Below are positions 24,202-57,717 of a stretch of DNA of 64,000 nucleotides, in pieces (positions within the stretch are counted from its first letter, which is position 1; every line of letters begins with the position of its first letter). A model generated the notes under the pieces. The model made no database searches, was not told the DNA's origin, and saw nothing but the letters and a program-made list of their open reading frames with translations. Made by a program: the position numbers and the translations under genes. The DNA is from Treponema sp. Its GTDB lineage: Bacteria > Spirochaetota > Spirochaetia > Treponematales > Treponemataceae. Where the stretch lies: NCBI GenBank assembly GCA_051883255.1, contig JBJETJ010000032.1, positions 15,562 through 79,561 on the forward strand, in the 5' to 3' direction.

Positions 24202-24310
24202 TTGACCATAATAAATAAAATTGATATTATTAACTCACTGGCGGCAAAGAGGTCGCAGATAAGTTTTTATGCAATGTGCATAAAGAATTGTCTGCGGCTT
24301 CTTTTTTTTT
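24202..24310 (+). promoter_or_regulatory. Promoter plus ANTAR-type attenuator upstream of gltB
   Basis: TTGACC(24202)-17-TATTAT(24225); GGCAAAGAGGTC at 24243-24254 overlaps the 5' arm of a terminator hairpin ending in a U-run at ~24302-24310. Confidence 0.8.
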
Positions 24311-24448
24311 GCTCAAAAAATTTGCAGAACGTCCGCAAGAACAAAATTTCGGTATGTGCAGAAAAATTCCTGTGCCGTTACCGATGTATGTTTATCAGGA
24401 GGGTGTAATAAAAACTTTGCCTGAAATAGCGTCAAAGTTTTTATTCAC

Positions 24449-24550
24449 AAGTTTGCGTTGCAGACTTCCTTATCAACAACTGTTCCCCATTGCGTTGCGG
24501 AACAGCGTAAAAAGCCAGCCGATTGTTGAAACAATCTTTTTGACTTTTTA
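24449..24550 (+). repeat. Three-hairpin dispersed repeat, copy 1
   Basis: Aligns end to end with 40653-40755. Confidence 0.85.
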
Positions 24551-24568
24551 CGGGAGAATTCAAAAAAA

Positions 24569-27500
24569 ATGAAGACATTATACGAACCAAGTTTTGAACA
24601 TGATAACTGCGGAATTGGTGCTGTCGTAAGCATCGACGGAATAAAAAGTCATCGTGTCGTAGAAAATGCACTTTCGATTGTAGAAAAACTTGAACATCGT
24701 GCAGGAAAAGATGCCAGCGGAGAAACTGGTGATGGTGTTGGAATTTTACTTCAAATAAGCCACAACTTTTTTAAAGAACTCGAAAAACAAATCGTTCCGT
24801 CTGGCGGACAGCCCGGACAAGTTGAACTTGGTTATGAACGCGATTACGGAATAGGAATGTTTTTCTTTCCTGCTGACAATTTTGAATTTGAAAAAAAACG
24901 TTTTGAAGACTCTTGCAAAAAAGGCAGTCTTGAATTTTTAGGCTGGCGCAAAGTTCCTGTAAATGAAAACGTACTCGGAAAAAAAGCGCGCGACTGTATG
25001 CCTTCAATCTGGCAGGGATTTATCAAGCGCCCTGATAACTGCGAAAAAGGTCTTGAGTTTGACAAGCTTCTTTATAAAGTCCGCCTTGAATTTGAAAAAG
25101 CACAAAATCAGAATGACTCAAAAACTTACGTCTGTTCACTTTCTTCAAGAACTGTCGTTTACAAAGGAATGTTCCTTGTACAGCAGCTGCGCACTTTTTA
25201 CAGCGACTTGCAGTCCCCTGAATACGAATCTGCGCTTGCCATAGTTCACTCACGATTCAGTACAAACACAAACCCGAGCTGGCAGCGCGCCCACCCGAAC
25301 AGATTTATCGCACACAACGGAGAAATAAACACAATCCGCGGAAACGTCGACAGAATGATTGCACGTCTTGGCGAAGTCGACACGACAGGAAGCGACAGTG
25401 CAATGCTCGACAATACACTTGAATATTTTGTAATGAACGGAATGTCACTTCCGCTTGCCGTAATGGTCTGTATTCCTGAACCATGGAAGCACGACGAATC
25501 TTTGTCAGAAAGCAAAAAAGATTTTTATCATTACTGGGCAACAATGATGGAACCTTGGGACGGCCCTGCCGCAATTTTATACAGCGACGGCGATGTTGTC
25601 GGAGCAACGCTTGACCGCAACGGACTGCGCCCGAGCCGCTACTTTATCACAAAAGACAATATGCTCATTCTTTCAAGCGAAGTCGGCGTACTCGACATTC
25701 CAGAAAGCGAAATCGTTTCTAAATCACGATTACAGCCGGGAAAAATGCTCCTCGTAGATACAGTGCGCGCAAGATTAATCAGCGACAAGGAAATAAAAGA
25801 AACTTATTCATCAGAGCACCCTTACGGTGAATGGCTCAGCCAGAATCTGCTTCACCTTGCAGACTTGAAAATTCCGAATAAAAAAATTCCTGTTTCAACT
25901 CTGGAAGAACGCAACAGGCTTTACAGGGCGTTCGGCTGGAATTACGAGGACGTAAACGAAATGGTTTTGCCGATGGCGCGCAATGGAGTTGAACCGACAG
26001 GAGCAATGGGCGTAGATACGCCGCTTGCCTGTATGTCAGACAAGCATCCGTCACTGTTCAGTTATTTTAAGCAGCTGTTTGCACAGGTTACAAATCCGCC
26101 GATTGACAGCCTTCGCGAAAAAATCGTAACTGACACGACAGTCTTTGTCGGAAGCGACGGCGACTTGCTCAAGGCAGACAGAAACAACTGCCGCGTTCTT
26201 GAAATCAACAATCCGATTTTAACCGGCGTCGATTTGCTCAAGATTGCAAATTTAAATCAGCCGGGATTAAAAGCAAAAAAAGTTTCGCTTCTCATAAACC
26301 GCATTGAAGAACCTGCAACAGGCAAAGTTCTTGAAAAAGCGCTCGACAATCTTTTTGAACAAATCGACCTTGCTTACAACGACGGCTACAACATCATAAT
26401 TCTGTCTGACCGCGGAGTTGACAAAGACAACGCTGCAATTCCTTCTTTGCTTGCGGTAAGTTCAGTTGAACAGTATCTAATCCGGACAAAAAAGCGTACA
26501 AAGATTTCGATTATCCTCGAAAGTGCCGAAGTCCGCGACGTTCATCAGGCTGCAATGTGTCTTGGCTACGGAGCGCGCGCAATAAATCCGTACCTCGCTC
26601 ACGAAGCAATCACGGAATTAATTGACCAGAAACTTCTGGACAAAGACTATCACACTGCAATAAACGATTACAACAAAGGCGTAATAAACGGAATCGTAAA
26701 GATTGCCGCAAAGATGGGAATCAGTGCAATTCAGTCATATCAGTCTGCGCAGATTTTTGAAGCAGTCGGAATATCGTCAGAAGTAATCAACAAATATTTT
26801 ACAAATACAATCAGCCGTGTCGAAGGCATCGGTCTTAAAGAAATCGAAGAGGACATAATCTATCATCACAAGCAGGCATGGAATCCGCAGGGACTTACAG
26901 TGAACACTCATCTCGACAGTGTCGGCTCTCACAAGTTCCGCAGAGGCCCGAATGCAGAGGACCACCTTTACAATCCTGAAACAATAATCGCATTGCAGGA
27001 AGCAACACGCAACGGAGATTACGCGCGGTTCAAGGAATACACAAGCCTTGTTGACGACAATTCACGTCCGCACACTTTGCGCGCAATGCTCGATTTTAAT
27101 TTTGACGAACAGAAAGAAATTCCGATTGAACAGGTCGAAAGCGTAGATTCGATTGTCCAGCGTTTTAAAACAGGTGCAATGTCTTACGGTTCAATCAGCG
27201 AAGAAGCGCATAAATGTATGGCAGCCGCAATGAACCATCTTCACGGAAAATCAAATTCAGGCGAAGGCGGTGAAAAACCAGAAAGGCTCGGCACTGAATA
27301 CAATTCTGCAATCAAGCAGGTTGCATCAGGACGGTTTGGCGTTACGGAAGAATATCTTTTGAGCGCAAAAGAAATTCAGATTAAAATGGCGCAGGGAGCA
27401 AAACCGGGCGAAGGCGGTCACCTTCCGGGCAAAAAAGTTTACCCTTGGATTGCAACGACACGATATGCAACTCCGGGCGTTTCGCTCATTTCGCCTCCGC

Positions 27501-29086
27501 CGCATCACGACATTTATTCAATCGAGGACTTGGCGCAGTTAATCTATGACTTGAAAAACGCAAACCGCAGTGCGCGTATTTCCGTAAAGCTCGTTTCAGA
27601 AGCCGGTGTCGGAACAATCGCAGCAGGCGTTGCAAAAGCAGGCGCTCAGGTAATCCTGATTTCTGGTCACGACGGCGGAACAGGGGCTGCGCCGATTTCA
27701 AGTATTCATCACGCAGGACTTCCTTGGGAACTCGGACTTGCAGAAGCACATCAGACTTTAATTCAGAACGGACTTCGCGGTCGGGTAATCATAGAAACTG
27801 ACGGAAAGCTTATGAGCGGACGTGACGTTGCAATGGCGTGCCTTCTCGGTGCAGAAGAATTCGGATTTGCAACAGCGCCGCTTATTACAATGGGCTGTGC
27901 AATGATGCGCGTCTGCAACCTCGACACATGTCCGTTCGGCGTTGCAACTCAAAACGAAAAACTCCGCGCACGATTCCCGGGCAAACCAGAATATGTCGAA
28001 AACTTTATGAAGTTCATCGCACAGGAACTTCGCGAATATATGGCAAAACTCGGCGTTCGTTCTGTTGACGAAATGTGCGGCCGCGTTGATTTGTTAAAGC
28101 TCAAGGAAAAACAGGGCTTTACGCGCGCAGGACTTTTGGACTTGAGCCGCGTCATCGGACAAAGTTCTGGCGAAACGGAAAGCTGGAAAAAATCGCGCGA
28201 CGTATTCAACTTTGAACTTGAAAAAACCGTTGACGAAAAAACTCTCGTAAAAGAATTTGAAAGCGGTAAAAAAATAATTGACGGCATCGCAATCGAAAGT
28301 ACAAACAGAACGGCAGGAACAATTTTAGGAAGCGAAATCCAAAAGAAGTTCGGCAATTCGTTAAACGAAAGCGATTACGTCGTAAATATGACAGGCGGTG
28401 CAGGACAGAGCTTCGGCGCATTCATTCCGAAGGGGCTGACACTCAAGCTGACAGGCGAAGCAAACGACTACTTTGGAAAAGGCTTGAGCGGCGGAAAACT
28501 CGTTGTCGTAAAACCGTCTGACTTTGCAAGTGAAGCAGACGAAAACATAATAATCGGAAACGTCGCTTTGTTTGGTTCAACTTCAGGAAAAGCATTTATA
28601 AACGGTGTCGCAGGCGAGCGTTTCTGCGTTCGCAATTCAGGTGCAACTGCTGTCGTAGAAGGCTGCGGTGACCACGGACTTGAATATATGACAGGCGGAA
28701 CTGCCGTAATCATCGGCGAAACAGGTAAAAACCTCGCGGCAGGAATGAGCGGCGGTATTGCCTACGTTCTCGATGACAAGCACGATTTGTATAAACGGAT
28801 GAATCACGAACTTGTAAAAATGTACGACATCGATGATGAAGTTACGACACTCCGGGATATTTCTGATGCAGACAATCTCCGTTCATTAATTGAACAGCAC
28901 GTAAAAGAAACTGATTCAGAAAAAGGCAAAAAACTGCTTGCCGACTGGAATAAATCTGTCCGCAACTTTAAGAAAATCATTCCGAATGATTATTTGAAAA
29001 TGAAGACAGAAATTTATTCAGGCGAAAAGCAGGGCTTGAAACAGGAAGAAGCCGTAATGGCGGCTTTTGAAAAAATGACAAGATAG
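24569..29086 (+). CDS. gltB: Glutamate synthase large subunit
   Basis: EHDNCGIG N-terminal catalytic Cys, HSRFSTNT, AHNGEINT, KMAQGAKPGEGG, CAMMRVC..DTCP, GXGXG C-terminal domain. Confidence 0.98.
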   Translation: MKTLYEPSFEHDNCGIGAVVSIDGIKSHRVVENALSIVEKLEHRAGKDASGETGDGVGILLQISHNFFKELEKQIVPSGGQPGQVELGYERDYGIGMFFFPADNFEFEKKRFEDSCKKGSLEFLGWRKVPVNENVLGKKARDCMPSIWQGFIKRPDNCEKGLEFDKLLYKVRLEFEKAQNQNDSKTYVCSLSSRTVVYKGMFLVQQLRTFYSDLQSPEYESALAIVHSRFSTNTNPSWQRAHPNRFIAHNGEINTIRGNVDRMIARLGEVDTTGSDSAMLDNTLEYFVMNGMSLPLAVMVCIPEPWKHDESLSESKKDFYHYWATMMEPWDGPAAILYSDGDVVGATLDRNGLRPSRYFITKDNMLILSSEVGVLDIPESEIVSKSRLQPGKMLLVDTVRARLISDKEIKETYSSEHPYGEWLSQNLLHLADLKIPNKKIPVSTLEERNRLYRAFGWNYEDVNEMVLPMARNGVEPTGAMGVDTPLACMSDKHPSLFSYFKQLFAQVTNPPIDSLREKIVTDTTVFVGSDGDLLKADRNNCRVLEINNPILTGVDLLKIANLNQPGLKAKKVSLLINRIEEPATGKVLEKALDNLFEQIDLAYNDGYNIIILSDRGVDKDNAAIPSLLAVSSVEQYLIRTKKRTKISIILESAEVRDVHQAAMCLGYGARAINPYLAHEAITELIDQKLLDKDYHTAINDYNKGVINGIVKIAAKMGISAIQSYQSAQIFEAVGISSEVINKYFTNTISRVEGIGLKEIEEDIIYHHKQAWNPQGLTVNTHLDSVGSHKFRRGPNAEDHLYNPETIIALQEATRNGDYARFKEYTSLVDDNSRPHTLRAMLDFNFDEQKEIPIEQVESVDSIVQRFKTGAMSYGSISEEAHKCMAAAMNHLHGKSNSGEGGEKPERLGTEYNSAIKQVASGRFGVTEEYLLSAKEIQIKMAQGAKPGEGGHLPGKKVYPWIATTRYATPGVSLISPPPHHDIYSIEDLAQLIYDLKNANRSARISVKLVSEAGVGTIAAGVAKAGAQVILISGHDGGTGAAPISSIHHAGLPWELGLAEAHQTLIQNGLRGRVIIETDGKLMSGRDVAMACLLGAEEFGFATAPLITMGCAMMRVCNLDTCPFGVATQNEKLRARFPGKPEYVENFMKFIAQELREYMAKLGVRSVDEMCGRVDLLKLKEKQGFTRAGLLDLSRVIGQSSGETESWKKSRDVFNFELEKTVDEKTLVKEFESGKKIIDGIAIESTNRTAGTILGSEIQKKFGNSLNESDYVVNMTGGAGQSFGAFIPKGLTLKLTGEANDYFGKGLSGGKLVVVKPSDFASEADENIIIGNVALFGSTSGKAFINGVAGERFCVRNSGATAVVEGCGDHGLEYMTGGTAVIIGETGKNLAAGMSGGIAYVLDDKHDLYKRMNHELVKMYDIDDEVTTLRDISDADNLRSLIEQHVKETDSEKGKKLLADWNKSVRNFKKIIPNDYLKMKTEIYSGEKQGLKQEEAVMAAFEKMTR

Positions 29087-29108
29087 CCAGAGCAGATTTC
29101 AGGAGAAA

Positions 29109-30689
29109 ATGAAAATGGGAAAAACTACAGGATTTTTAGATTATACAAGAACAGAAAACGGAAATTTTCCGCCGCTGGAAAGAATAAAAAACTTCAAGGA
29201 ATTTCATCCGTTTCTTGATGACGTAAAGCGCCGTGAACAGGCCGCACGATGTATGAACTGCGGAGTGCCGATGTGTCAGTCTGCAATAAAACTTGCCGGT
29301 ATGGTAACGGGCTGTCCTCTGCACAATTATATCCCTGAGTGGAACGACGCGCTCTATCAGGGTCAGTACGATATGGCAGCCTGGCGTCTTTTAAAGACTT
29401 CAAGCTTTCCTGAGTTTACGGGCCGTGTCTGCCCTGCGTTATGCGAAAAAGCATGCAACTGCGGAAACCCTGTCTGCAATGACGAAGCCGTTACGATTCA
29501 CGACAACGAACTTTACATTATCGAAAAAGCTTTTTCTTCCGGCTATATGCAGCCAGAAATTCCTGATTCACGAAGCGGAAAAAAAGTTGCCGTAATCGGT
29601 TCAGGGCCTGCGGGACTTGCAGTTGCAGACTGGCTTAACAGGCGCGGACATTCCGTAACAGTTTACGAGCGCGAAGACAAAGCAGGCGGACTTTTGATGT
29701 ACGGAATTCCAAATATGAAGCTCGACAAAAAAATCGTTGACCGCCGAATTGAACTGATGAAAGCCGAAGGCGTTGAATTTATTTTTAATGCCGACGTCGG
29801 AAAAAATATTTCTGCAAGCCACATCATGCAAAGTTACGATGCAGTCGCTCTGTGCTGCGGTGCAAAAAAAGCAAGGGCACTTTCTGCAACCGGCATCGAA
29901 AAACTTAACGGCGGTAAAAACGGCGCAGAAGGCGGAATGATGTTTGCCGTAGATTTCTTGAAAGAAGTTACAAAGTGTGTAATTGCCACGACTTCTGCAC
30001 TTGAAAAAATCAAAATCAATCCTGCAAACGAACAAATCGGACAAATGCTTTTAAAAGAAGCCGGCATTGAACTCAAAGACAAAAACGTCATCATCGTCGG
30101 CGGTGGTGACACAGGCAACGACTGCACGGGAACTTCAATAAGGCTCGGTGCAAAAAGCATAACCCAGATTGAAATGATGCCGTGTCCTCCAGCCAGCCGT
30201 GCAGAAAACAATCCTTGGCCGCAGTGGCCGCGTGTTTTAAAAACAGACTACGGCGCAGAAGAATCAATCGCAGTATACGGTCACGATCCGCGCGTTTACG
30301 AAACTACGATAAAAGAAGTTTTCAGCAAGGACGGAAAAATCACGGGCGTAAAAACTGTCGAAGTAGAATTCCAGACAATCGACGGAAAACGCCAGCTTGT
30401 TGAACGCAAAGGAACAGAAAAAGAACTGCCTTGCGATTTGCTTTTAGTTGCAGCAGGATTTGTCGGAGCAGAAGAATATACAGCCGAAAGTTTCGGAACG
30501 GAACTCGGACCGCGCGGAACAGTGCTTTCAAAAAGCGGAAAAACTTTCAGTTCAGAAACAGGCTACCATTCATCAGTTGAAAAAGTCTTTACGGCAGGCG
30601 ATATGCACCGCGGACAGTCTTTAGTTGTCTGGGCAATCGCAGAAGGCCGTGAATGTGCTCAGGAAATTGATGAGTATTTGATGAAATAA
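29109..30689 (+). CDS. gltD: Glutamate synthase small subunit
   Basis: QAARCMNCGVPMC, FPEFTGRVCPALCE, VIGSGPAGL, VGGGDTGNDC, GDMHRGQSLVVWAIAEGR. Confidence 0.97.
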   Translation: MKMGKTTGFLDYTRTENGNFPPLERIKNFKEFHPFLDDVKRREQAARCMNCGVPMCQSAIKLAGMVTGCPLHNYIPEWNDALYQGQYDMAAWRLLKTSSFPEFTGRVCPALCEKACNCGNPVCNDEAVTIHDNELYIIEKAFSSGYMQPEIPDSRSGKKVAVIGSGPAGLAVADWLNRRGHSVTVYEREDKAGGLLMYGIPNMKLDKKIVDRRIELMKAEGVEFIFNADVGKNISASHIMQSYDAVALCCGAKKARALSATGIEKLNGGKNGAEGGMMFAVDFLKEVTKCVIATTSALEKIKINPANEQIGQMLLKEAGIELKDKNVIIVGGGDTGNDCTGTSIRLGAKSITQIEMMPCPPASRAENNPWPQWPRVLKTDYGAEESIAVYGHDPRVYETTIKEVFSKDGKITGVKTVEVEFQTIDGKRQLVERKGTEKELPCDLLLVAAGFVGAEEYTAESFGTELGPRGTVLSKSGKTFSSETGYHSSVEKVFTAGDMHRGQSLVVWAIAEGRECAQEIDEYLMK

Positions 30690-30702
30690 GGACTGGCAGA
30701 CA

Positions 30703-32133
30703 ATGGGTTTTCATGACGAATGTGGCGTTGTAGGAATTTTCAATGCAGAAAATTCCGCAGCGCTTACATATTTTGCAATTACCTCTTTACAGCACAGAGG
30801 ACAGGAAAGTGCAGGAATCGCAGTTTCTGACGGAACTGAAATTCACATTCATAAAGATATGGGACTTGTCAGCGACGTTTTTGAACAAGACCATTTTGAC
30901 TCATTAAAAGGAAACATCGCAGTAGGTCATGTCCGCTATGCAACGGCAGGCGGAAGAACAATCGAAAACGCACAGCCTTTCTTTAACACTTCAAAACTTG
31001 GCGGTATTGCACTTGCCCACAACGGACAGCTTGTAAACTACGAACCATTGCGCGAAATGCTCGAGGACTCAGGCAATACATTTTCTTCAACGAGCGACTC
31101 GGAAGTAATCATAAAACTGATTGCACGCAACTACAAAAAAGGACTTGAAAACGCAGTCGTCAACACGATTCAGCTTATAAAAGGTTCTTACGCACTCTGC
31201 CTTATGACAGAAGACACGCTCATCGGTGTCAGAGATCCAAACGGAATCCGCCCCTTGTGTCTTGGAAAAATAACTTCAAGTTCAACTGAACAGGATTTAT
31301 CAGGTTCATCAAGTTCTTCAAGTTCATCAAATTCGTCAAATCTAAACGAAGAAAAAACGACATACATTCTTGCATCAGAGTCCTGTGCAATCGATTCCGT
31401 AAACGGAGAATTTGTGCGCGACATTCAGCCCGGCGAAATCGTCATCATCACAAAAGACGGCGTAAAATCAATTCTCCTCGAAGAAAAAACACGAAAGCAG
31501 ACATGTATTTTTGAATACGTTTACTTTGCGCGCCCCGACTCCGTCATCGACCAGATTGCGGTTCAGGAAGCCAGATACAAAATGGGAAAAGTCCTCGCAA
31601 ACGAATCTCCCGTAGAAGCCGACGTCGTAATCGGAGTGCCCGACAGCGGAATCGGCGCGGCACAAGGCTACGCAAAAGAATCAGGAATTCCGTATGTCAC
31701 GGGAATAATAAAAAACAAATACATCGGACGAACATTTATTGCGCCGACACAAAAAGAGCGCGAAAATATGGTCTTTGTAAAATTGAACGCAATCAAGAGC
31801 GACCTCGAAGGAAAACGCGTAATCGTAATTGACGATTCAATCGTACGCGGAACTACGAGCAGACGGCTTGTCCAGATTTTAAGGCGCGCAGGTGCAAAAG
31901 AAGTTCACTTTCGGGTATCGTCGCCACCGGTAAAATTTCCGTGCTACCTTGGAATCGACACGCCGAGCAAAAATGAACTTATCTCAAGCACGCACGAACT
32001 TGAAGAAATACGAAAAGAAATCGGAGCAGATTCCCTTGCATTCATCAGTCTTGAAGGAATGATAAAATCATTCGGAGTTGATACATTCTGCAAAGGCTGT
32101 TTTTGCGGAGAATATCCTGTTGCAGGAAAATAG
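30703..32133 (+). CDS. purF: Amidophosphoribosyltransferase
   Basis: DECGVVG, LQHRGQESAG, AHNGQL, CIFEYVYFARPDS, VIDDSIVRGTTS, CYLGID, CKGCFCGEYP. Confidence 0.97.
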   Translation: MGFHDECGVVGIFNAENSAALTYFAITSLQHRGQESAGIAVSDGTEIHIHKDMGLVSDVFEQDHFDSLKGNIAVGHVRYATAGGRTIENAQPFFNTSKLGGIALAHNGQLVNYEPLREMLEDSGNTFSSTSDSEVIIKLIARNYKKGLENAVVNTIQLIKGSYALCLMTEDTLIGVRDPNGIRPLCLGKITSSSTEQDLSGSSSSSSSSNSSNLNEEKTTYILASESCAIDSVNGEFVRDIQPGEIVIITKDGVKSILLEEKTRKQTCIFEYVYFARPDSVIDQIAVQEARYKMGKVLANESPVEADVVIGVPDSGIGAAQGYAKESGIPYVTGIIKNKYIGRTFIAPTQKERENMVFVKLNAIKSDLEGKRVIVIDDSIVRGTTSRRLVQILRRAGAKEVHFRVSSPPVKFPCYLGIDTPSKNELISSTHELEEIRKEIGADSLAFISLEGMIKSFGVDTFCKGCFCGEYPVAGK

Positions 32134-32143: not shown

Positions 32144-32710
32144 TTAAGCGTAAGTTTTGATGACCTGTTCTGCAACCGCGATTTTTTTTATGCAGCGGTC
32201 CATCGCTTCTTTTTCGATGTAGCGGTGGGCGTCCTGTTCAGTCATTTTGAGGTTCTGCATTAAAATCATTTTTGCGCGGTTAATCAGGCGGATTTCTTCC
32301 ATTTTGACTTTGAGCTTTGTCGTCTGACTTGAAAGAACCTGAACTTTATACTGAACTGCAAGCGCAATTTTTATCATATTATAAAAATAGAACTGGTCAA
32401 ACGTCGAAGTTATCGTAAGAATTCCGTACGTTTCAACTTTGTAACTTATCTGGTCAAAAAACTGAACGGGCGAAAGCAACAAAATCGTACTTGCAGAATC
32501 AGAAATATCGATTGCAAAATCAGTTCCTTCGCCGTCGGCAAAATCGACAATCACGATATTATAACTGCGCTCAGAACAAATCCGGCGCGCTTCGTTAAAG
32601 TCTTTTATAATGACAGTTTCAAAAGTCGGCGGAACAAGCATACTGTTAATCAGCGAGGAAATTTTATCATCTCTTGTTACAACTAAAACGCTGTGAGTTT
32701 CTTGAGTCAT
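32144..32710 (-). CDS. ANTAR-domain antiterminator with degenerate receiver domain (AmiR/NasT/NitR-like)
   Basis: C-terminal INRAKMILM...TEQDAHRYIEKEAMDRCIKKIAVA is an ANTAR motif; the N-terminal receiver-like fold lacks the conserved beta5 K-P. Confidence 0.9.
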   Translation of the reverse strand: MTQETHSVLVVTRDDKISSLINSMLVPPTFETVIIKDFNEARRICSERSYNIVIVDFADGEGTDFAIDISDSASTILLLSPVQFFDQISYKVETYGILTITSTFDQFYFYNMIKIALAVQYKVQVLSSQTTKLKVKMEEIRLINRAKMILMQNLKMTEQDAHRYIEKEAMDRCIKKIAVAEQVIKTYA

Positions 32711-32712: not shown

Positions 32713-33879
32713 CTAGTTATTGAAAATTCCCTTTATAAAGTCGCTCTCGTCTGCCAGCTTTTTTGCAGCTCCCAGAGTGTCAGGCAAAGTTTTTAAGTCG
32801 CCGACATTGCTGATGTCAAAAAGATTTTTCTCTACAGGTTCTGGCGGTAAAAGATTATTTTTTATTCCGTCCAATGCTGAATAAATCAAAACCGTAAATG
32901 CAATGTACGGATTACATTCAGAATCAGCAGAGCGAACTTCAAGGCGCGTTGAATTTTTACTTGCAGGAACTCTGATAAAAGCAGAGCGATTTTCTGAACC
33001 CCAGCAGATGTACTTTGGAGCTTTGTGTTCGCCAAGCCGGTTATATGATTCTTCTGAGGAATTTAGAAAATACGTAATCTCCTCTGCGTGTTTGATTATT
33101 CCTGCAAGAACATTCTGCATTTTTGAATTGTCAGAACATGAAATATTTATGTGCAGACCGCTTCCTGCTTCCCCGCTCAAAGGCTTTGGAGAAAAGTCTG
33201 CAAAAAGACCGTTGGTTGCAGCCTTTGTCCGTACAATCCATTTAAAAGTTTCTGCATTGTCAGCGGCAATAAGCGGATCTGAATAATGAAAATCAATTTC
33301 GTTCTGCCCCGGGCCTTCTTCGTGATGGCTTGATTCGGGCGTAATTCCCATCTGCTCAAGAGTAAGGCAAATCTCGCGGCGGATATTTTCGCCTTTGTCC
33401 TCCGGTGCAATATCCATATAGCCGGCATTGTCAAAAGGAATTTTTGTAGGTTCGTTTTTTTCGTTCAATTTGAAAAGGTAGAATTCGATTTCAGTTCCGA
33501 TTCCAAATTCAAGATTGAATTTGTCTTTTGCAAAGTTCACTGCATTTTGAAGCATAGTGCGGCAGTCTTTTTTGTAGAGAGTTCCGTCGGGATATTTTAT
33601 GTTGCAGAACATTCTTACGACTTTGCCTGTGTTCGGACGCCAGGGGAGAACGCAAATTGTCGTAGGGTCTGGGTGCAAAAACAAATCAGATTTTTCAGGA
33701 GTTTCAAAACCGCAGATTGCAGACGCATCAAAACTTATTCCCTCGCGAAAAGCGCGCTCCAGCTGCGTGGCAATAATCGAAATATTTTTTTGCCGTCCCT
33801 TTATGTCAAAAAAAGCAAGCCGAACAAATTTTACGTCTTCTTCTTTTATAAAATCAAGTATTTCGCTTTCTGTGTACAT
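32713..33879 (-). CDS. glnA: Glutamine synthetase type I-like protein (short, ~388 aa)
   Basis: FDASAICGF, GTEIEFYLF, HHEEGPGQNEID, PKPLSGEAGSGLHINIS, WGSENRSAFIRVP, RLEVRSAD..CNPY; ATG at 33879 follows GGGAG. Confidence 0.85.
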   Translation of the reverse strand: MYTESEILDFIKEEDVKFVRLAFFDIKGRQKNISIIATQLERAFREGISFDASAICGFETPEKSDLFLHPDPTTICVLPWRPNTGKVVRMFCNIKYPDGTLYKKDCRTMLQNAVNFAKDKFNLEFGIGTEIEFYLFKLNEKNEPTKIPFDNAGYMDIAPEDKGENIRREICLTLEQMGITPESSHHEEGPGQNEIDFHYSDPLIAADNAETFKWIVRTKAATNGLFADFSPKPLSGEAGSGLHINISCSDNSKMQNVLAGIIKHAEEITYFLNSSEESYNRLGEHKAPKYICWGSENRSAFIRVPASKNSTRLEVRSADSECNPYIAFTVLIYSALDGIKNNLLPPEPVEKNLFDISNVGDLKTLPDTLGAAKKLADESDFIKGIFNN

Positions 33880-33939
33880 CGTTTCTCCCATAAAAATCAA
33901 TTTAAAACCAATTTAAGGAAATTTAATTTCCGCAATAAT

Positions 33940-34038
33940 AAAAAATGGCCGGAGAAGCCGACTGAATTTTTCCAGTAAACTGTTCCCGACCTTTCTGCTT
34001 CGAGTTTAAATAATATTTTAAATTTTTACTTTTAGCAA
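33940..34038 (-). promoter_or_regulatory. Promoter plus divergent attenuator-like leader of the glnA-ANTAR operon
   Basis: TTGCTA(34038-34033)-17-TATTAT(34015-34010); AGCAGAAAGGTC(33999-33988) runs into GGTCGGGA...TCCGGCC-ATTTTTT. Confidence 0.6.
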
Positions 34039-34045
34039 TAGTGCG

Positions 34046-34372
34046 CTCGTAAATTTCAATTACCCCACAAACACTGGACTACCTCGCGCCACGAGTTTGC
34101 AAAGGGCAAACTCTGTATGGGGTGTGGGTCGGTGTAACTTTTGAATTTCAGTTGCTTCACAAGCACGGAGTTAGTTCGCGGTACGAGAATTGCATAGCGC
34201 AATTCTCTATGTGGGGTGTGGGTCGGTGTAACTTGTAAATTTCGGTTACCTTACAAGCACTGGACTACCTCGCGCCACGAGAATTGCACAGGGGCAAAAC
34301 TCTGTGTGGGGTGTGGGTCGGTGTAACTCGTAAATTTCGATTGCTCACAAACACGGAGTTAGTTCGCGGTAC
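34046..34372. repeat. Tandem array of ~93-95-bp mosaic units (REP/BIME-like), about 3.4 copies
   Basis: GGGGTGTGGGTCGGTGTAACT identical at 34119, 34213, 34308; alternating TGGACTACCTCGCGCCAC (34075, 34261) and GGAGTTAGTTCGCGGTAC (34167, 34355); each full unit carries a hairpin. Confidence 0.9.
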
Positions 34373-34395
34373 TAGGCTGGAATTTTGCAGGGTAT

Positions 34396-34424
34396 AAAAA
34401 AAGGCTGTCCGACGGACAGCCTTT
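34396..34424 (-). terminator. Intrinsic terminator of the outer-membrane protein gene
   Basis: AAAGGCTGTCC-GAC-GGACAGCCTTT with A-run at 34396-34402. Confidence 0.8.
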
Positions 34425-43822: not shown

Positions 43823-45577
43823 TTAATATGCCTTGTCGTGAACTCCAGCAATCGCACGTCCTGAAGGTTCGTCCATATTTTTCCAGGCGGCATCCCACTC
43901 AAGAGCCTTTGCAGTTGAGCAGGCAACTCCGGCTTCGTGCGGTACGACTTTTGCGGCGCTGTCACTCGGGAAAAGGCGGCTGTAAATTTCGCGGTAGTAA
44001 TATTCTTCTTTTGTTTTTGGCGGATTTACAGGAAATCTGTTTTCGCGGCGTGCAAATTCTGCATCGCTTACTTTTTCTTCCGTCATTTTTTTGAGAGTGT
44101 CAATCCAGTTGTAGCCTACGCCGTCAGAGAACTGTTCTTTCTGTCGCCAGCAGATTTCTTCGGGGAGCATATCTTCAAACGCCTTTCTGATAATCCATTT
44201 TTCCATTCGCTGTTTACCGTCTGCGAGGCGGATATTCATTTTGTCTGACGGATTGAGCGACATTGCAATATCGATGAATTCTTTATCAAGGAACGGAACG
44301 CGCCCTTCGACACCCCAAGCCATAAGCGATTTGTTTGCACGGAGGCAGTCGTAAAGATGGAGCTTGCTCATTTTGCGCACGAGTTCTTCGTGGAATTCTT
44401 TTGAATCCGGCGCTTTGTGAAAATACAGATAACCGCCAAAAAGTTCGTCACTTCCCTCACCGCTCAAAACCATTTTTATTCCCATCGATTTTATAACGCG
44501 GGCTAACAGGTACATCGGCGTTGAGGCGCGGACTGTCGTAATGTCGTAAGTTTCGATGTGATAGATTACGTCAGGCAAAGCATCGAGCGCCTCCTGAATC
44601 GTAAAGTGAACTTCGTGATGAACTGTTCCGATGTAGTCAGCCGCTTTCTGTGCCGCAATCAAGTCAGGGCTTCCTTCAAGTCCGACTGCAAAACTGTGGA
44701 GCTGAGGCCACCAGGCTGCTTCTTTTGAATCGCTTTCAATTCGTTTTTTAGAAAACTTCTGCGTAACTGCCGCGATGATTGAAGAGTCAAGTCCGCCGCT
44801 CAAAAGAACGCCGTACGGAACGTCACTCATCAGCTGCTGCTTTACTGCGTTTTCAAGACCGTTGCGCACTTTTTCGATTACGCCCGGATTAATAACTTCG
44901 CCCTTGTCGTCAGTTGCGCGCGGATTGTTTTTTACGGCATCAAAAGTTTCCCAGTCGCGTTTATACCAGCGCGAAGGCTTTTCGTCTTTTGAATAAAAAT
45001 AATGTCCGTTCGGGAATTCTTCGATTGTCTGACATTCGCCTTCAAGCGCCTTTAATTCTGATGCGACATAATAACGGCCGGCTTTGTCCCAGCCCTGATA
45101 AAGCGGAATTACACCGATTTCATCGCGCGAAATAAGATAAACGTCGTTCTCGCTGTCGTAAAGTGCAAACGCAAAAATACCGCTAAGCTTTTCTATCATC
45201 TGCGTAAAATCACCGCTCTGCTGGTATTCCTTGTAAAGCGGAATGATTACTTCACAGTCGCTCATCGTGCGGAAATTATATTTTCCTTCAAACTCTTTGC
45301 GGATTTCCTTGTGGTTGTAAATTTCGCCGTTTGCCGCAAGAATGATTTTTTCGTCGTCACTTACAAGCGGCTGTTTGCCCGAAAGCGGGTCAACAATCGA
45401 AAGCCTCTCGTGACTTAAAATTGCGTTTTCGCCCGTGTAAACACCGCTCCAGTCCGGGCCGCGATGCCGGATTTTTTTTGACATCTCCAGAACCTGATTT
45501 CTTAATTCCTCTTTTAATCCTGCATCAATAGGTTTTGAGCCGCTGCTCAAATCAAACGCACCTACAAATCCACACAT
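43823..45577 (-). CDS. asnB: Asparagine synthetase B (glutamine-hydrolysing)
   Basis: MCGFVG start after GGAGGA, IRHRGPDWSG, ANGEIYNH, LLSGGLDSS, SGEGSDELFGGY, WRQKEQFSDGVG. Confidence 0.97.
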   Translation of the reverse strand: MCGFVGAFDLSSGSKPIDAGLKEELRNQVLEMSKKIRHRGPDWSGVYTGENAILSHERLSIVDPLSGKQPLVSDDEKIILAANGEIYNHKEIRKEFEGKYNFRTMSDCEVIIPLYKEYQQSGDFTQMIEKLSGIFAFALYDSENDVYLISRDEIGVIPLYQGWDKAGRYYVASELKALEGECQTIEEFPNGHYFYSKDEKPSRWYKRDWETFDAVKNNPRATDDKGEVINPGVIEKVRNGLENAVKQQLMSDVPYGVLLSGGLDSSIIAAVTQKFSKKRIESDSKEAAWWPQLHSFAVGLEGSPDLIAAQKAADYIGTVHHEVHFTIQEALDALPDVIYHIETYDITTVRASTPMYLLARVIKSMGIKMVLSGEGSDELFGGYLYFHKAPDSKEFHEELVRKMSKLHLYDCLRANKSLMAWGVEGRVPFLDKEFIDIAMSLNPSDKMNIRLADGKQRMEKWIIRKAFEDMLPEEICWRQKEQFSDGVGYNWIDTLKKMTEEKVSDAEFARRENRFPVNPPKTKEEYYYREIYSRLFPSDSAAKVVPHEAGVACSTAKALEWDAAWKNMDEPSGRAIAGVHDKAY

Positions 45578-45651
45578 ATAAAATTCCTCCAAAAGTTCGC
45601 TTCGCAAGAAACTTGACTCCGGCGTTTTCAAGTTCTCTCAAACCATAAAAC

Positions 45652-45755
45652 AAAAAAAGAGGCCGTAGAAAAAATCTATGCCTTATGCACAAAATTTATC
45701 TACGACCTCTTTGCCGTTGTTCTTTTATAATAGCGATTTTATTCATTTATTTCAA
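45652..45755 (-). promoter_or_regulatory. Promoter plus ANTAR-type attenuator upstream of asnB
   Basis: TTGAAA(45755-45750)-17-TATTAT(45732-45727); GGCAAAGAGGTC(45715-45704) overlaps GAGGTCGTAGA...TCTACGGCCTC-TTTTTTT. Confidence 0.8.
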
Positions 45756-49460: not shown

Positions 49461-49465
49461 CTAAA

Positions 49466-52428: not shown

Positions 52429-52604
52429 AAAAGCTATAAAGAGTACGGGATTTTGGAGTTTGCTGATGTTGTATGGCGGTATGGTCTGTAATTATAGATT
52501 TGCAGACTGCAAAACAGAAAAAGAGTTTGCGTTGCAAACTTTTATATAAATTTATTTCCAAAGTTTTTGGAAAATCGGAGAGAGAAATTTAACGGAGGTG
52601 TAAA

Positions 52605-53468
52605 ATGATAAAATCGTTTTACAAAATAGCAGTATTAATCAGTATTGTTTCCTTTGCAGTATTTACAAGCTGTGAAAACCCTGCAAATAATGGAGGAAAT
52701 GGCGGCGGTAATAGCGGTGGAAACGGAGGTAATGGTGGAAGTGGAGGAGGCGGTGGTGAGAAAAAAGAAATTTCTTACATCGGAAAAAAGGCACCAAAAG
52801 AACAAAAATATGCAGGTGACATCGTTTTTTGTGATGGAAGTGCAACTCCATATAACATTAATCTTTCTTTGACAAGGGAGCAGAAGGCTAAAGTAATAGC
52901 AGTAATTTTTTATGCAGGAACAGAGTGTAGTGATAATGGTAAAATCAGAGCGCTTGGTATAGGCTTACACCAATGTGGAACGGCATGTTGGTGTGATGCT
53001 AATGCCAATGGATATAAAACTAACATCGAAAATATTCATTGTTCAGATGAGCTGCAAGGTATAAAGGATGGTTCAGGAAATTTTTCAAATATTAAACGTT
53101 TTTTTAACCAAAAGGGAATCCCTGATGATACAGCGATAGAAAGTTACTATCCTGCATTCTATGCTGCAAAAAATTATGGAGATAATTTGCATGCAAGTAC
53201 TGACATTGAATATATAGAAAACTGGTATTTACCGTCAGCAGCTGAAGGGTGGAAAATAATTGAAAATCTGCAGCTTATAAAAAATGTATGCTCTATTTGT
53301 GGAGTAAACGATTTTGACGAACTTAAAGCATTCTGGACTTCCTCACAGAATCCTGATGGTGAACACGAAGCTCAAGTGGCATCTACTCAAAACTTTAAAG
53401 AAAAACACTATATAGGAAAATTTATTAAATGGGGTCCTGGTAATATAGTTGCAATTAGAGAGTTCTAA
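52605..53468 (+). CDS. Lipoprotein with Gly/Asn-rich linker
   Basis: Lipobox FAVFTSC, GGNGGGNSGGNGGNGGSGGGGG linker, GDIVF.DG and WYLPSAAE motifs. Confidence 0.8.
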   Translation: MIKSFYKIAVLISIVSFAVFTSCENPANNGGNGGGNSGGNGGNGGSGGGGGEKKEISYIGKKAPKEQKYAGDIVFCDGSATPYNINLSLTREQKAKVIAVIFYAGTECSDNGKIRALGIGLHQCGTACWCDANANGYKTNIENIHCSDELQGIKDGSGNFSNIKRFFNQKGIPDDTAIESYYPAFYAAKNYGDNLHASTDIEYIENWYLPSAAEGWKIIENLQLIKNVCSICGVNDFDELKAFWTSSQNPDGEHEAQVASTQNFKEKHYIGKFIKWGPGNIVAIREF

Positions 53469-53501
53469 CAAAAAAATATATCGGAGATGATTAAATAGAT
53501 T

Positions 53502-53627
53502 AAGAGAGGAGCTGCTAATAAGTATGACATGTCATTCTGATCTAGCCATAAGATTTCATACATCATATTTAATATGACGTTTGAAATTGATTCAGCATGA
53601 CAAAACTTATTAGACAGCTCCTCTCTT
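53502..53627. repeat. 126-bp long imperfect inverted repeat (MITE-like or structured RNA)
   Basis: AAGAGAGGAGCTG/CAGCTCCTCTCTT, CTAATAAGT/ACTTATTAG, TGTCAT/ATGACA and CTGA/TCAG nested pairings. Confidence 0.75.
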
Positions 53628-53643
53628 TTATAGTTTTGAAAAA

Positions 53644-55320
53644 CTAGTACTGAAGGGCATCGTAGCCTTCTTCACCTGTCCTTACTTTTACAACATTCTG
53701 AACATCGTAAACAAAAATCTTTCCGTCACCAATATGACCTGTGTAAAGAACTTCTTTTGCAGCAGTTATTACCAAATCAACAGGAACTTCAGAAACTACG
53801 ATGTCAACCTTAATCTTTGGAAGCAAAGTCATATCAACTTCTGCACCACGATAAAGCTGAGTTTTTCCATGCTGAACACCGCAACCCAGAACATTTGTAA
53901 CAGTCATACCTGTTACGTTGATGTCGTTCATCGCAGTCTTCAATTCTTCAAACTTGCTCTGACGTGTAATAATAGTTACCATGTGGAACTTAGCATCAGG
54001 CTTGCTCGGTGCTTTTGCAACAGGAACTGCTTTTTCTACAGGAACAGGAGATTCCCTTGCATCGCCCGGAGCACCTTCTGTCATAACCTGAGGAGCCATA
54101 ATAAATCCAGCGTAAGAAGAATCAATACCGTGTTCAAGTTTATCAAGACCAACAACTTCTTCTTCTCTGCTTGCCCTCAATCCGTGTACTTTCTTAATCA
54201 GGCTGAACGTAATGAGCATGCAGACTGTTGTCCAGAGTAAAATTGCTCCGATTCCGAGAGCCTGAACTCCAAGCTGTCTGAATCCGTGTCCATAGAAAAG
54301 ACCTGTATCTACGCTGAACAAACCGCATGCGAGAGTTCCCCATACGCCGTTTGCAAGGTGAACTGCAACTGCACCAACCGGGTCATCAATATGAAGTTTA
54401 AGGTCAAGAAGTTCTACAACAAAAACTACAAGAAGCCCTGCAACAATACCGATAATTGCGGCACCCAAAGCATCACAAGTAGCACAAGGAGCCGTAATTG
54501 CAACAAGACCTGCAAGTGAAGCATTCAACGTCATAGAAACATCAGGCTTGCCGTTCTTTATCCAGGTAAAAATCATTGTAGTTACACATGCAAGAGCCGG
54601 AGCGATTGTCGTTGTAGTAAATACAGCCGCAAGTCCTCCGATACCGCCCATCTGTGTACAAGCCGCACCGTTAAATCCATACCAGCCAAACCAGAGAATG
54701 AATGTACCAAGTGCACCGAGTGTCAATGAGTGTCCCGGAATAGCGTGAACTTTTGTAACCGTTCCATTCTTGTCGCGGTCATATTTTCCAATTCGGGGTC
54801 CGAGGAAAATCGCACCGATTAAAGCTGCTGTTCCGCCTACAGAGTGAATTGCAGCAGAACCGGCAAAATCAATAAAGCCAAGCTGTGCAAGCCAGCCCTG
54901 AGAATTCCATACCCAGCCGGCTTCAATAGGATAAACTATTGCAGAAATTACTGCAGAATAAATACAATATGCACTGAACTTAGTTCTTTCTGCCATTGAA
55001 CCAGAAACAATAGTTGCAGCTGTAGCACAGAACACTAAGTTGAATACAAAACTTGACCAGTCGATTTCAGCAAAGTTTGTAAAAAGCTGCAAATTCGGTT
55101 TACCGATAAAACCAAAGAAATAGTTTTCGCTCATCATCAAGCCAAAACCTAAAAGCATGAACATTGGCGTACCGATACAAAAATCCATCAGGTTTTTCAT
55201 GATGATGTTGCCGGCATTTTTTGCACGGGTAAAACCTGTTTCAACCATTGCAAATCCGCACTGCATAAAGAATACAAGTGCCGCACCAATAAGGAACCAA
55301 ACTCCCCAAACTTCAGACAT
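53644..55320 (-). CDS. amtB: Ammonium transporter fused to C-terminal PII (GlnK/GlnB) domain
   Basis: FMQCGFAMVETG, DFAGSAAIH, ILWFGWYGFN, DDPVGAVAVH; PII motifs GMTVTNVLGCG and TGHIGDGKIFV. Confidence 0.95.
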   Translation of the reverse strand: MSEVWGVWFLIGAALVFFMQCGFAMVETGFTRAKNAGNIIMKNLMDFCIGTPMFMLLGFGLMMSENYFFGFIGKPNLQLFTNFAEIDWSSFVFNLVFCATAATIVSGSMAERTKFSAYCIYSAVISAIVYPIEAGWVWNSQGWLAQLGFIDFAGSAAIHSVGGTAALIGAIFLGPRIGKYDRDKNGTVTKVHAIPGHSLTLGALGTFILWFGWYGFNGAACTQMGGIGGLAAVFTTTTIAPALACVTTMIFTWIKNGKPDVSMTLNASLAGLVAITAPCATCDALGAAIIGIVAGLLVVFVVELLDLKLHIDDPVGAVAVHLANGVWGTLACGLFSVDTGLFYGHGFRQLGVQALGIGAILLWTTVCMLITFSLIKKVHGLRASREEEVVGLDKLEHGIDSSYAGFIMAPQVMTEGAPGDARESPVPVEKAVPVAKAPSKPDAKFHMVTIITRQSKFEELKTAMNDINVTGMTVTNVLGCGVQHGKTQLYRGAEVDMTLLPKIKVDIVVSEVPVDLVITAAKEVLYTGHIGDGKIFVYDVQNVVKVRTGEEGYDALQY

Positions 55321-55333
55321 ACAATCCTCCTCT

Positions 55334-55377
55334 AAAAAGCCGATTAGAAAACATCAGTTTTCAGACCGGCTTTTTTT
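55334..55377. terminator. Hairpin terminator between glnA (type III) and amt-glnK
   Basis: AAAAAGCCG...CGGCTTTTTTT with A- and T-runs on both sides. Confidence 0.7.
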
Positions 55378-55417
55378 GATAAACAAGTTCGCAACGCAAA
55401 CTTGAAACGCGCTCCTT

Positions 55418-57511
55418 TTATTTTACGCTGAACAGCATTTCGCCGTAACTTGGAACAGGCCATTTTTCTGACGGAACAAAACCTTCAAGTTCGTCAACAT
55501 TGGCACGAAGTTCATTCATTGCAGCAAATACTGTGTTTTTGTAGAACATAGCAATTTCGGAAGCACCTTCAATACTCTTTACATCAACAACTGCCTTTTC
55601 AAGAGTCTGAACCTTACCGTAAATTGAACTTGTAAGCTGGCTTATTTTCTTAAGCAACTCAGCTTCGTAAGTATCTTCTACTGATGAAACCGCAGTTTTC
55701 TTTGCGATAATCGTATCAGCAAGTTCTTTTGAATAACCGCTTGCAGCAGGAAGATACATCTTTTTAACCATATCAATCATTGTCAAAGCTTCGATATTGA
55801 TGATTTTTGAATAATTATCATTCTGAATTTCAAAGCGTGAATTGATTTCTGTATCACTGAATACTCCATGTTTCTTGAACAAATCACGGTTCTTCTGGTC
55901 AGTAAAATGTTTCAAAGCTTCCGGTGTTGATTTAAGATTGAGAAGTCCGCGTTTTTCAGCTTCTTTTACCCAGGCATCATCATATCCGTTGCCGTTGAAA
56001 ATAATCCGCTTGTGTTCTTTGATTGTCTTAAGAATCAAAGCGTGCAAATCTTTCTGGAAATCTTTGCTGCTTTCAAGCTGGTCTGCAAACTGGCTCAATT
56101 CTTCTGCAACTGCCGTATTAAGCATAATGTTTGCGCAGGCGATTGAATCGCTTGAACCAAGTGAACGGAACTCAAATTTATTTCCTGTAAATGCAAACGG
56201 AGAAGTACGGTTACGGTCAGTCGTATCCTTGTTAAAATCAGGAAGAACTGTTACGCCAATCTGCATTTTTTCTTTCTGGTGTGAACCGTAAGGTTTGCCT
56301 TCTTCAAGTGCATCAAGGATTGCGCTAAGTTCATCTCCAAGGAACATAGAAATAATTGCAGGAGGAGCTTCGTTAGCACCAAGACGATGGTCGTTGCCGG
56401 CAGTTCCTACAGAAATGCGCAGCAGATCCTGATATTCGTCAACAGCTTTAATTACAGCGCACAGGAACAAAAGGAACTGTGCATTGCTTTCTGGAGTTGC
56501 ACCCGGGTCAAGAAGGTTTTTACCAGTGTTTGTAGAAATTGACCAGTTGTTATGTTTACCGCTTCCGTTTACGCCGGCAAATGGTTTTTCATGAAGCAGA
56601 CAAACCATTCCGTGTTTAGAAGCAACTTTGCGCATAACTTCCATTGTAAGCTGGTTGTGGTCGCAGGCAAGATTTGTCGTGCTGAAAATCGGTGCAAGTT
56701 CGTGCTGAGCAGGCGCTACTTCGTTGTGTTCAGTTTTTGCAAGAATTCCGAGCTTCCACAGTTCTTTGTTCAAATCTTTCATAAAGTCCTGAACGCGCGG
56801 TTTTATCATACCGAAGTAGTGGTCTTCAAGTTCCTGTCCTTTCGGAGATTTTGCGCCGAACAGAGTTCTGCCTGTAAAAATTAAGTCCTCGCGTTTTTCG
56901 TAAACAGACTTGTCGATTAAGAAATATTCCTGTTCCGGGCCGACTGTTGTCTTTACTGAAGTTACGTCCTGATTTCCGAACAGTTTTAAAACACGCACTG
57001 CCTGTTTGCTGATTGCCTGCATAGAACGGAGCAATGGTGTTTTTTTATCAAGTGCTTCGCCTGTATAAGAACAGAAGCAAGTAGGAATACAAAGCGTTCC
57101 GTCTTTTATGAATGCGTAAGAAGTAGGATCCCATGCTGTATAACCGCGGGCTTCAAAAGTTGCACGCAAACCGCCAGAAGGGAAAGAAGATGCGTCAGGT
57201 TCACCCTGTACAAGTTCCTTACCGCTGAATTCCATAATGATTTTTCCGTCGCTTGCCGGCTGAATAAAACTGTCGTGTTTTTCAGCAGTTACGCCTGTAA
57301 GCGGCTGAAACCAGTGCGTAAAGTGAGTTGCACCTTTTTCGATGGCCCAGTCTTTCATTGCGTTTGCAACGATATTTGCCACAGTCGGATCAAGTTTTTC
57401 TCCGCCCTCGATTGTTTTCATAAGTTGCTTAAAAGTTTCTTTTGGCAACCTCGCTTTCATCACTGTTTCGTTAAAAACATTTTCACCGAAAATTGATGTT
57501 ACAGATTCCAT
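55418..57511 (-). CDS. glnA: Glutamine synthetase type III
   Basis: [83 protein letters not shown]; ATG at 57511 after GGAGGA. Confidence 0.96.
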
Positions 57512-57545
57512 AAATCCTCCAAATATTTTTTTGCAATCCATAAAA

Positions 57546-57717
57546 CAAAAAGCGCCGTAAAATTTAAAGATGATGACACACCTTCAAAATTACGACGCCT
57601 TTGCCGATAAAGTACAAATTGTATAAAATTGTATAAAAAAAGGTCGCAGAATAATCACTTCTGCGACCTCATTGCCGTTGTTAAATTGATAATACAGTTT
57701 CTAAAAAAAACTGTCAA
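57546..57717 (-). promoter_or_regulatory. Promoter plus two tandem ANTAR-type attenuators upstream of type III glnA
   Basis: TTGACA(57717-57712)-17-TATTAT(57694-57689); GGCAATGAGGTC(57676-57665)+terminator; GGCAAAGGCGTC(57605-57594)+terminator. Confidence 0.82.

Follow-up and report, generated by a model that had tools for sequence, protein, structure and literature searches.

For Firmicutes and Proteobacteria, the control of nitrogen genes by ANTAR proteins has been described or predicted. The present analysis was concerned with a 64,000-nt stretch of a Treponema genome, referred to as the window (C32:15562-79561 of a 2.70-Mb assembly; C-numbers denote contigs of that assembly throughout), and with a small RNA hairpin, the hexaloop element, that heads several nitrogen-gene leaders in it and overlaps intrinsic terminators. 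The window also encodes an ANTAR protein (32144-32710, minus strand). Taken together, the elements and this protein probably constitute an ANTAR regulon of the NitR-like kind, in which antitermination would control the assimilation of ammonium and glutamine; it would act through single 5'-terminal hexaloops and be run by the 32144-32710 protein.

The target hairpin of ANTAR proteins was defined by Ramesh et al. (2012; PMC3369931) as a hexaloop with A at position 1 (A1) and G at position 4 (G4) that is closed by 3 bp of stem or more. Dual-hexaloop systems include EutV/eut of Enterococcus faecalis, NasR/nasF, and AmiR/amiE (PMC3369931). The same study predicted ANTAR nitrogen regulons in Desulfotomaculum, Carboxydothermus, Alkaliphilus, and Mahella, and Firmicute regulons for glutamine synthetase (GS), glutamate synthase (GOGAT), AsnB, and AmtB are given in its Table S2; no Treponema or Spirochaeta entries are present in its tables. 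Walshe et al. (2022; PMC8934654) reported that the EutV dimer contacts one hexaloop, redefined the minimal binding motif accordingly, and predicted that single-hexaloop sites may exist in genomes; in their assays, antitermination still needed both hairpins and a short linker. A further system, from Clostridium saccharobutylicum, is the cluster glnA-nitR-gltAB (Stutz et al. 2007, cited here after PMC6316151 and PMC4676874). In those two papers, NitR antitermination is described as proposed to induce GS/GOGAT under nitrogen limitation, and no account is given of the RNA sites of NitR.

The Treponema leaders resemble the RNAs of Ramesh et al. in their A1/G4 hexaloop, short stem, and conserved closing pair; in a hairpin whose 3' half doubles as the 5' arm of the terminator; in the presence of several attenuators per genome, some in tandem; and in the predicted control of GS, GOGAT, AsnB, AmtB-PII, and the regulator's own operon. 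They differ in lacking both the canonical second hairpin (P1) and the linker, in placing the hairpin at the extreme 5' end of the transcript, in a 30-45 nt apical insert carried by most of the terminators, and in having a spirochaete as host. Unlike in the EutV system of Walshe et al., the single hexaloop is here the proposed antiterminator itself. As in glnA-nitR-gltAB, a Firmicute-type GS-I-alpha gene lies directly upstream of a small receiver (REC)-like ANTAR gene, with GOGAT adjacent, a likeness that concerns gene layout as the reviews describe it. In contrast to that cluster as so described, the Treponema GS has only 388 aa, being shortened at its C-terminus, and the main target would be another enzyme, a type III glutamine synthetase (GSIII).

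Hexaloop elements and their conservation

The 12-nt motif GGCAANGNNGTC was matched four times in the window, where 0.26 matches were expected and none of 100 shuffles reached four. The copies were located by pattern scan at 24243-24254 (plus strand) and at 45704-45715, 57665-57676, and 57594-57605 (minus strand). An earlier note on this DNA had placed the motif at these four sites, overlapping the 5' arms of terminators, and both the pattern scan and folding agreed with it. In each case the copy makes up the 5' arm of an intrinsic terminator, and these terminators are strong (dG between -19.8 and -34.7 kcal/mol, z-scores between -5.1 and -7.5). The motif-terminator units stand before gltBD-purF, asnB, and GSIII(-amtB/PII), and the window copies lie, in summary, 9-13 nt past a near-consensus sigma-70 promoter.

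The gltBD-purF leader (plus strand) begins with a TG-extended promoter of the sigma-70 type (24202-24230, TTGACC-17-TATTAT). It is followed by the 5'-terminal hexaloop hairpin GCGGC-AAAGAG-GUCGC (24241-24256, dG -5.8), a putative ANTAR binding site, and by an intrinsic terminator with a U9 tract (24246-24312, dG -34.7, z -6.7). The 5' arm of this terminator is built from hexaloop nucleotides 2-6 together with the 3' strand of the hairpin stem, and the long apical insert of the terminator contains a mini-hairpin of its own. The asnB leader (45650-45755, minus strand) comprises a promoter at 45755-45727 (TTGAAA-17-TATTAT), a hexaloop hairpin at 45717-45702 with the motif at 45715-45704, and a terminator at 45712-45650 (dG -31, z -7.5). 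Two attenuators are arranged in tandem before GSIII on the minus strand, a layout that is kept in relatives. The first unit (57633-57717) features a promoter at 57717-57689 (TTGACA-17-TATTAT), a hexaloop hairpin with the motif copy GGCAATGAGGTC at 57676-57665, and a short-loop terminator at 57670-57640 with a U tract; the second (57544-57607) features GGCAAAGGCGTC at 57605-57594 and a terminator with dG -27.8 and z -7.0.

The leader of the GS-ANTAR operon (33936-34038, minus strand) was examined in the same way. Its promoter lies at 34038-34010 (TTGCTA-17-TATTAT), and a promoter scan supported the earlier description of all four promoters as a TTG-type -35 separated by 17 bp from a TATTAT -10. 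The divergent motif copy that had been assigned to this leader at 33999 was recovered as a motif-like site, AGCAGAAAGGTC (33999-33988), with a weak terminator-like hairpin at 33996-33941 (z -2.7). Its loop, AGAAAG, has no G at position 4, and no stable hairpin is formed (dG 0); for both reasons, this copy is not a canonical site in this genome. In many relatives, a canonical motif is found at the same position.

Genome scans yielded two more copies with terminators outside the window. That at C32:81885 precedes dapL, which encodes LL-diaminopimelate aminotransferase (TIGR03542, 3e-174). The other, at C3:22748 (minus strand), precedes the gene for a 332-aa protein made up of a short MCP-signalling segment and a Cache/KinD-like sensor part. 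This MCP/Cache-like gene is an unexpected member of a nitrogen regulon. Rfam includes no family of this kind: no model was matched at the gathering score anywhere in the window, and the GSIII leader gave chance-level matches only (E up to 1). A glutamine riboswitch or another known leader was rejected on the basis of this result.

A pattern search of the genus returned many near-identical motif-plus-terminator units. Elements were collected by three criteria only, namely that they had CAANG as loop core, had the closing G, and overlapped a terminator, which gave 129 elements and 79 distinct 16-mers. In an alignment, the five-pair stem was 81% paired (66.9% in shuffles), with a covariation score of 0.48 (0.23 in shuffles); none of 500 shuffles scored as high, and all slid registers scored 0.14 or less. 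The outer stem pairs were formed in 114 and 122 of the 129 elements (shuffle means of 74 and 103, respectively). Changes on both sides were present at four of the five pairs, and the stem variants ACGGC/GTCGT, TGAGC/GTTCA, TGAAC/GTTCA, and AGGGC/GCTCA amount to full compensatory exchange. Stem position 2 (G.U, A-U, G-C, A.C) showed no dependence between its two sides; it is the outer pairs, along with the variant leaders before the GS-ANTAR operon, that provide the covariation support for the stem. A stem of 3 bp had been proposed earlier. It is usually 4-5 bp, with the consensus ACGGC/GUCGU, which is above the minimum of 3 bp given by Ramesh et al.

The hexaloop reads AA(A/U/C)G(A/G)N in all 50 leaders that were compared, and thus carries the ANTAR signature of A1 and G4, with A1, A2, and G4 partly fixed by how the matches were collected. 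The loop is closed by a conserved C-G pair. As in the described ANTAR targets, the 3' half of the hairpin is also the 5' arm of an intrinsic terminator, the helix of which was 99.3% paired and had compensatory changes at 7 of its 11 pairs (27 aligned units from the genus). The hairpin alone has a folding energy of -1.2 to -5.8 kcal/mol vs. -21 to -35 kcal/mol for the terminator; because the terminator is far more stable, termination would be the default state.

Upstream of the hairpin, near-consensus promoters were present in the 50 leaders (mean of 9.8 out of 12 matches to TTGACA-17-TATAAT). The distance from the promoter end to the first G of the motif was 9-14 nt in 44 leaders and 7-16 nt in 47; nothing further upstream was conserved. 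This geometry indicates that the RNA begins some 2-7 nt before the hairpin. Hairpins with A..G.. hexaloops were counted on both sides of the element. In the 70 nt upstream, 15 were found compared to 9.8 +/- 3.1 in shuffles; they were AT-rich and had no fixed position. Downstream, a modest excess was observed (23 vs. 13.9 +/- 3.7 in shuffles). It is accounted for by second attenuators, about nine in all, which are located at +56 to +83 and are complete, terminator included. Once these separate tandem attenuators were set aside, a second downstream hexaloop occurred at chance level. The arrangement set out by Ramesh et al., two tandem hexaloop hairpins with a short linker, was not found in the 50 leaders.

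As judged from these leaders, P1, which the earlier note could not place with confidence in each of its leaders, is absent because the promoter abuts the hairpin. The canonical dual-hairpin mechanism on which the earlier note had drawn was consequently abandoned, and the element should not be filed as a member of the canonical ANTAR RNAs. In spite of this difference in architecture, the single-hexaloop element most probably works in the same way as they do.

Candidate regulator, predicted regulon content, and distribution

The 188-aa regulator matched PF03861 at 5.5e-16, with a score of 58.5 bits compared to a cut-off of 27.3, and its C-terminal ANTAR domain follows a coiled-coil helix and an N-terminal receiver fold. 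Its residues 9-184 align with residues 7-188 of EutV (6WSH), and a full-length match to Rv1626 (1S8N) was also obtained. The best 120 homologues listed were all from Treponema. In a comparison of 120 orthologues, Asp56 and Asp14 never varied, but ITS(P/T)F stood in place of the beta5 Lys, and there was no conservation at the Thr/Ser position. Neither a complete phospho-acceptor site nor an adjacent histidine-kinase gene was found, the flanking genes being those of GS-I and purF. Classical phosphotransfer is an improbable form of signal input, since the receiver has lost the conserved Lys and its gene has no kinase gene beside it.

In these respects, the regulator resembles the AmiC-AmiR and NasS-NasT systems, which likewise feature a receiver-like domain with an incomplete phosphorylation site, no adjacent kinase, and a co-transcribed partner protein. 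Unlike in those systems, the partner would be a glutamine synthetase rather than a sensor resembling a periplasmic binding protein, and their interaction is hypothetical. The gene for this short GS-I-alpha (32713-33879, minus strand, 388 aa; identified with Pfam) lies directly upstream of the ANTAR gene in the same orientation, its stop codon being 2 nt from the ANTAR start. The gltBD-purF operon ends 10 nt from the ANTAR gene on the other side. The encoded GS is of the Firmicute type, with a match of 1e-96 to Bacillus subtilis GS (4LNF) vs. about 1e-58 for enterobacterial GS. Its catalytic motifs are intact, and about 55 aa are missing from its C-terminus. Speculatively, this co-transcribed enzyme is the obvious candidate for the partner that sets the activity of the regulator.

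The content of the regulon was assessed from the first 480 nt behind 37 leaders of relatives, which were compared to this genome with tblastn, and from leaders that were read directly. The genes behind the leaders were gltB (about 12 cases), asnB (about 11), GSIII (6), purF (3), the GS-I/ANTAR operon (3), gltD (2), amtB-PII (2), pyrG (2), a Cys-cluster protein (2), and dapF (1). Among 73 named loci around the regulator, the element stood directly before the GS-I gene in 27; in many others, pyrG was immediately upstream of GS-I, and pyrG has a leader in some relatives. From these data, the regulon is predicted to comprise two glutamine synthetases, GOGAT, the amidotransferases GltB, PurF, AsnB, and PyrG, ammonium uptake, DapL, DapF, and the regulator itself. 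GltB, PurF, AsnB, and PyrG are four glutamine amidotransferases, and DapL and DapF are enzymes of the lysine/diaminopimelate pathway; DapL uses glutamate as amino donor. In this genome, the genes predicted to be reached by read-through are gltBD-purF, asnB, GSIII(-amtB/PII), dapL, and the MCP/Cache-like gene.

The position of pyrG varies. In T. bryantii and many relatives (e.g. the loci L163 and L173), it ends about 25 nt before GS-I, which gives a pyrG-GS-ANTAR operon. In this genome pyrG has no leader and follows a carB-like gene at a separate site (C32:87314).

A covariance model was built on the alignment of 27 motif-terminator units, and proteins more than 50% identical to the window's ANTAR protein were counted as its orthologues. 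All 19 genus genomes with an orthologue had 2-10 model matches each, whereas 18 genus genomes without one had 0-1 weak matches. Five further orthologue-bearing genomes, one of them from a sister genus, had 2-8 matches each. Overall, at least two matches (2-10) were present in 24 of 24 orthologue-bearing genomes, so that the ANTAR protein and the RNA co-occur. The single orthologue-less exception, with 2 matches, was G064, a 69%-complete metagenome-assembled genome (MAG). Two complete genus genomes devoid of any ANTAR gene had zero matches. Across 200 Spirochaetota genomes from 104 genera, matches were confined to this genus and one orthologue-bearing sister genus. By the named records, the clade is one of Treponema from gut and rumen, with T. 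bryantii, T. berlinense, and Treponema sp. JC4 among its members.

The earlier idea that the ANTAR protein coordinates GS, GOGAT, and AsnB is favored by this co-occurrence, by the element before the GS-ANTAR operon of relatives, and by the hexaloop signature; the dual-hairpin mechanism that had accompanied it does not stand.

A second ANTAR family (29-38% identity) was observed in Treponema species without the orthologue, which have 0-1 element copies each. In one of these genomes, G010, an element lies directly behind the paralogue gene (G010:C23:21931-22616). The Treponema locus was also encountered, at 68-75% protein identity, in four MAGs labelled Anaerovoracaceae, Lachnospiraceae, or Parabacteroides (L106, L109, L112, and L156). 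The genomes of three of them (L106, L109, and L156) were searched, and model matches were found on several contigs of each. These MAGs are probably mislabelled or contaminated bins.

Proposed mechanism and competing explanations

The following sequence of events is proposed. Transcripts under control would start 2-7 nt before the small hairpin, given the conserved promoter geometry, and would fold into the covariation-supported structure with a 4-5 bp ACGGC/GUCGU stem and an AA(A/U/C)G(A/G)N hexaloop. By default, a downstream arm would pair with the 3' part of the loop, the 3' strand of the stem, and the 4-6 nt that follow. The resulting intrinsic terminator of 11-17 bp with its U tract, likewise supported by covariation, would stop transcription. 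The regulator would presumably be activated by nitrogen or glutamine limitation. By homology with the EutV-RNA structure, the activated ANTAR dimer would then bind the single hexaloop via A1 and G4, and the bound hairpin would block the terminator and allow RNA polymerase to read on. More speculatively, long apical inserts in the terminators, or the second attenuator where two are in tandem, may replace the time window that P1 provides in EutV systems.

The module as a whole was probably acquired from Firmicutes, a transfer suggested by the match to the glnA-nitR-gltAB layout and by the Firmicute-type GS. A much broader proposal can be framed, but it is doubtful. According to it, more than 100 natural P1-less ANTAR attenuators exist in gut and rumen Treponema, so ANTAR antitermination would have no intrinsic need for a dual-hairpin motif; the recruitment step would be replaced by closeness to the promoter in combination with either long loops in the terminators or units in tandem. 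A kinase-less, pseudo-receiver ANTAR protein would be set by the shortened GS-I-alpha, in a glutamine-sensing pair analogous to GS-TnrA/GlnR but acting on RNA, and the whole module would have come from Firmicutes.

Several observations weigh against a single-hexaloop ANTAR regulon. Its support is comparative throughout, and the constancy of the loop is subject to the collection effect mentioned above. EutV, the only system to have been dissected mechanistically, needs P1 and a short linker for antitermination (PMC8934654), and P1 is missing here. The regulator's own leader is degenerate in this genome. In addition, the orthologue-bearing species may form one clade, in which case their genomes are not independent observations. 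Two MAGs (G013 and G022) have one element copy each, yet no detectable ANTAR gene, and several genomes with only a 30-38% ANTAR paralogue still carry one copy.

Some of these points could be accommodated if the attenuators were real but the hairpin were read by another trans-acting factor (an RNA-binding protein or GS), with the ANTAR gene merely riding in the same transferred nitrogen island. The clade structure of the co-occurrence, the single copies in genomes with a distant paralogue or no detectable ANTAR protein, and the lack of the P1 that EutV needs would all be expected in that case. We regard it as unlikely, however: the A1/G4 hexaloop, the closing C-G pair, and the terminator overlap are exactly the features of an ANTAR target, the paralogues are also ANTAR proteins that could read the same loop, and the element shows no linkage to any further candidate gene for RNA binding. 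A canonical dual-hairpin target, with either a more distant transcription start upstream or an irregularly looped P1 that is easily overlooked, would bring the leaders in line with all of the ANTAR attenuators validated so far, which have two hairpins, and the starts used here were deduced from promoter geometry. Such a target is very unlikely in view of near-consensus promoters that, in 44 of 50 leaders, end 9-14 nt short of the motif with nothing conserved upstream, of upstream hexaloops at chance level without fixed position, and of downstream hexaloops that belong solely to separate tandem attenuators 56-83 nt away.

Less probable again is a shared cassette of promoter and leader at which termination is partial and constitutive and does not respond to any signal. 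Regulation was indeed deduced by comparison, and leaders so alike would fit the spread of a single cassette; nevertheless, the element is kept, with covariation, before orthologous nitrogen genes across the genus, it is restricted to regulator-bearing genomes, and terminators of -21 to -35 kcal/mol are so strong that essential genes would be nearly silent without an antiterminator. The least probable alternative is that a transcription factor uses the conserved 16-20 bp (+3 to +20) as a DNA operator and represses as a roadblock, the terminators being incidental. Their fixed position relative to the promoter in nearly all leaders and their very strong sequence conservation are what such an operator would show. 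But the element is strand-specific and not palindromic, and compensatory changes preserve the pairing of both hairpin and terminator. The operator reading was rejected on the strength of the promoter-less tandem copies, each of which overlaps its own terminator.

ANTAR antitermination through single hexaloops is thus the favored explanation. Because Firmicute regulons for GS, GOGAT, AsnB, and AmtB had already been predicted, the content of the regulon is not new, and its novelty is confined to the host clade and the architecture. Within that scope, the earlier note's statement that no description in spirochaetes was known held up: nothing on ANTAR in Treponema was found in the searchable literature. 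This would be the first ANTAR regulon described for spirochaetes, and its hosts are abundant gut and rumen Treponema such as T. bryantii and T. berlinense. It may explain how GS, GOGAT, four glutamine amidotransferases, and AmtB are coordinated without classical Ntr or TnrA circuits at these genes. It also bears on a question raised by Walshe et al. (PMC8934654), namely why two hexaloops should be needed for antitermination when the dimer binds one. Conserved, natural single-hexaloop attenuators in cultivable species would provide a setting in which that question is testable. Searches based on dual-hairpin models would miss the single-hexaloop class, and ANTAR regulons may therefore be under-counted.

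Gene models and neighboring sequences

Gene identities given in the earlier note (gltBD-purF, asnB, type III glnA, and glnA-ANTAR) were borne out by Pfam. The controlled operon gltBD-purF (24569-32133, plus strand) consists of gltB (24569-29086), a gltD-like gene (29109-30689), and, as its last gene, purF (30703-32133). On the minus strand, asnB (43823-45577) encodes a glutamine-hydrolysing asparagine synthetase. Its true start is at 45577 (MCGFVG, ribosome-binding site GGAGG), the mechanically called open reading frame (ORF; 43823-45631) being too long. The same applies to GSIII (55418-57511, minus strand), for which the true start is 57511 (ribosome-binding site GGAGG) and the mechanical ORF (55418-57541) is too long. 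The AmtB-PII fusion is encoded by one 558-aa ORF (53644-55320, minus strand); it shares its strand with GSIII, and the gap between the two genes is 97 nt.

About 250 nt (24313-24568) separate the gltB attenuator from the start codon. More hairpins are present in this stretch, AAAACTTTG...CAAAGTTTTT among them, as is a minus-strand site that resembles a terminator (24338-24322). Since gltB starts 20-60 nt after the terminator in relatives, the stretch looks like an insertion. An array of repeat units of about 95 nt (34040-34400) adjoins the -35 of the GS-ANTAR promoter. Each unit of this array is composed of an invariant core and a hairpin, and similar units occur elsewhere in the genome, e.g. 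on C9 near position 2900.

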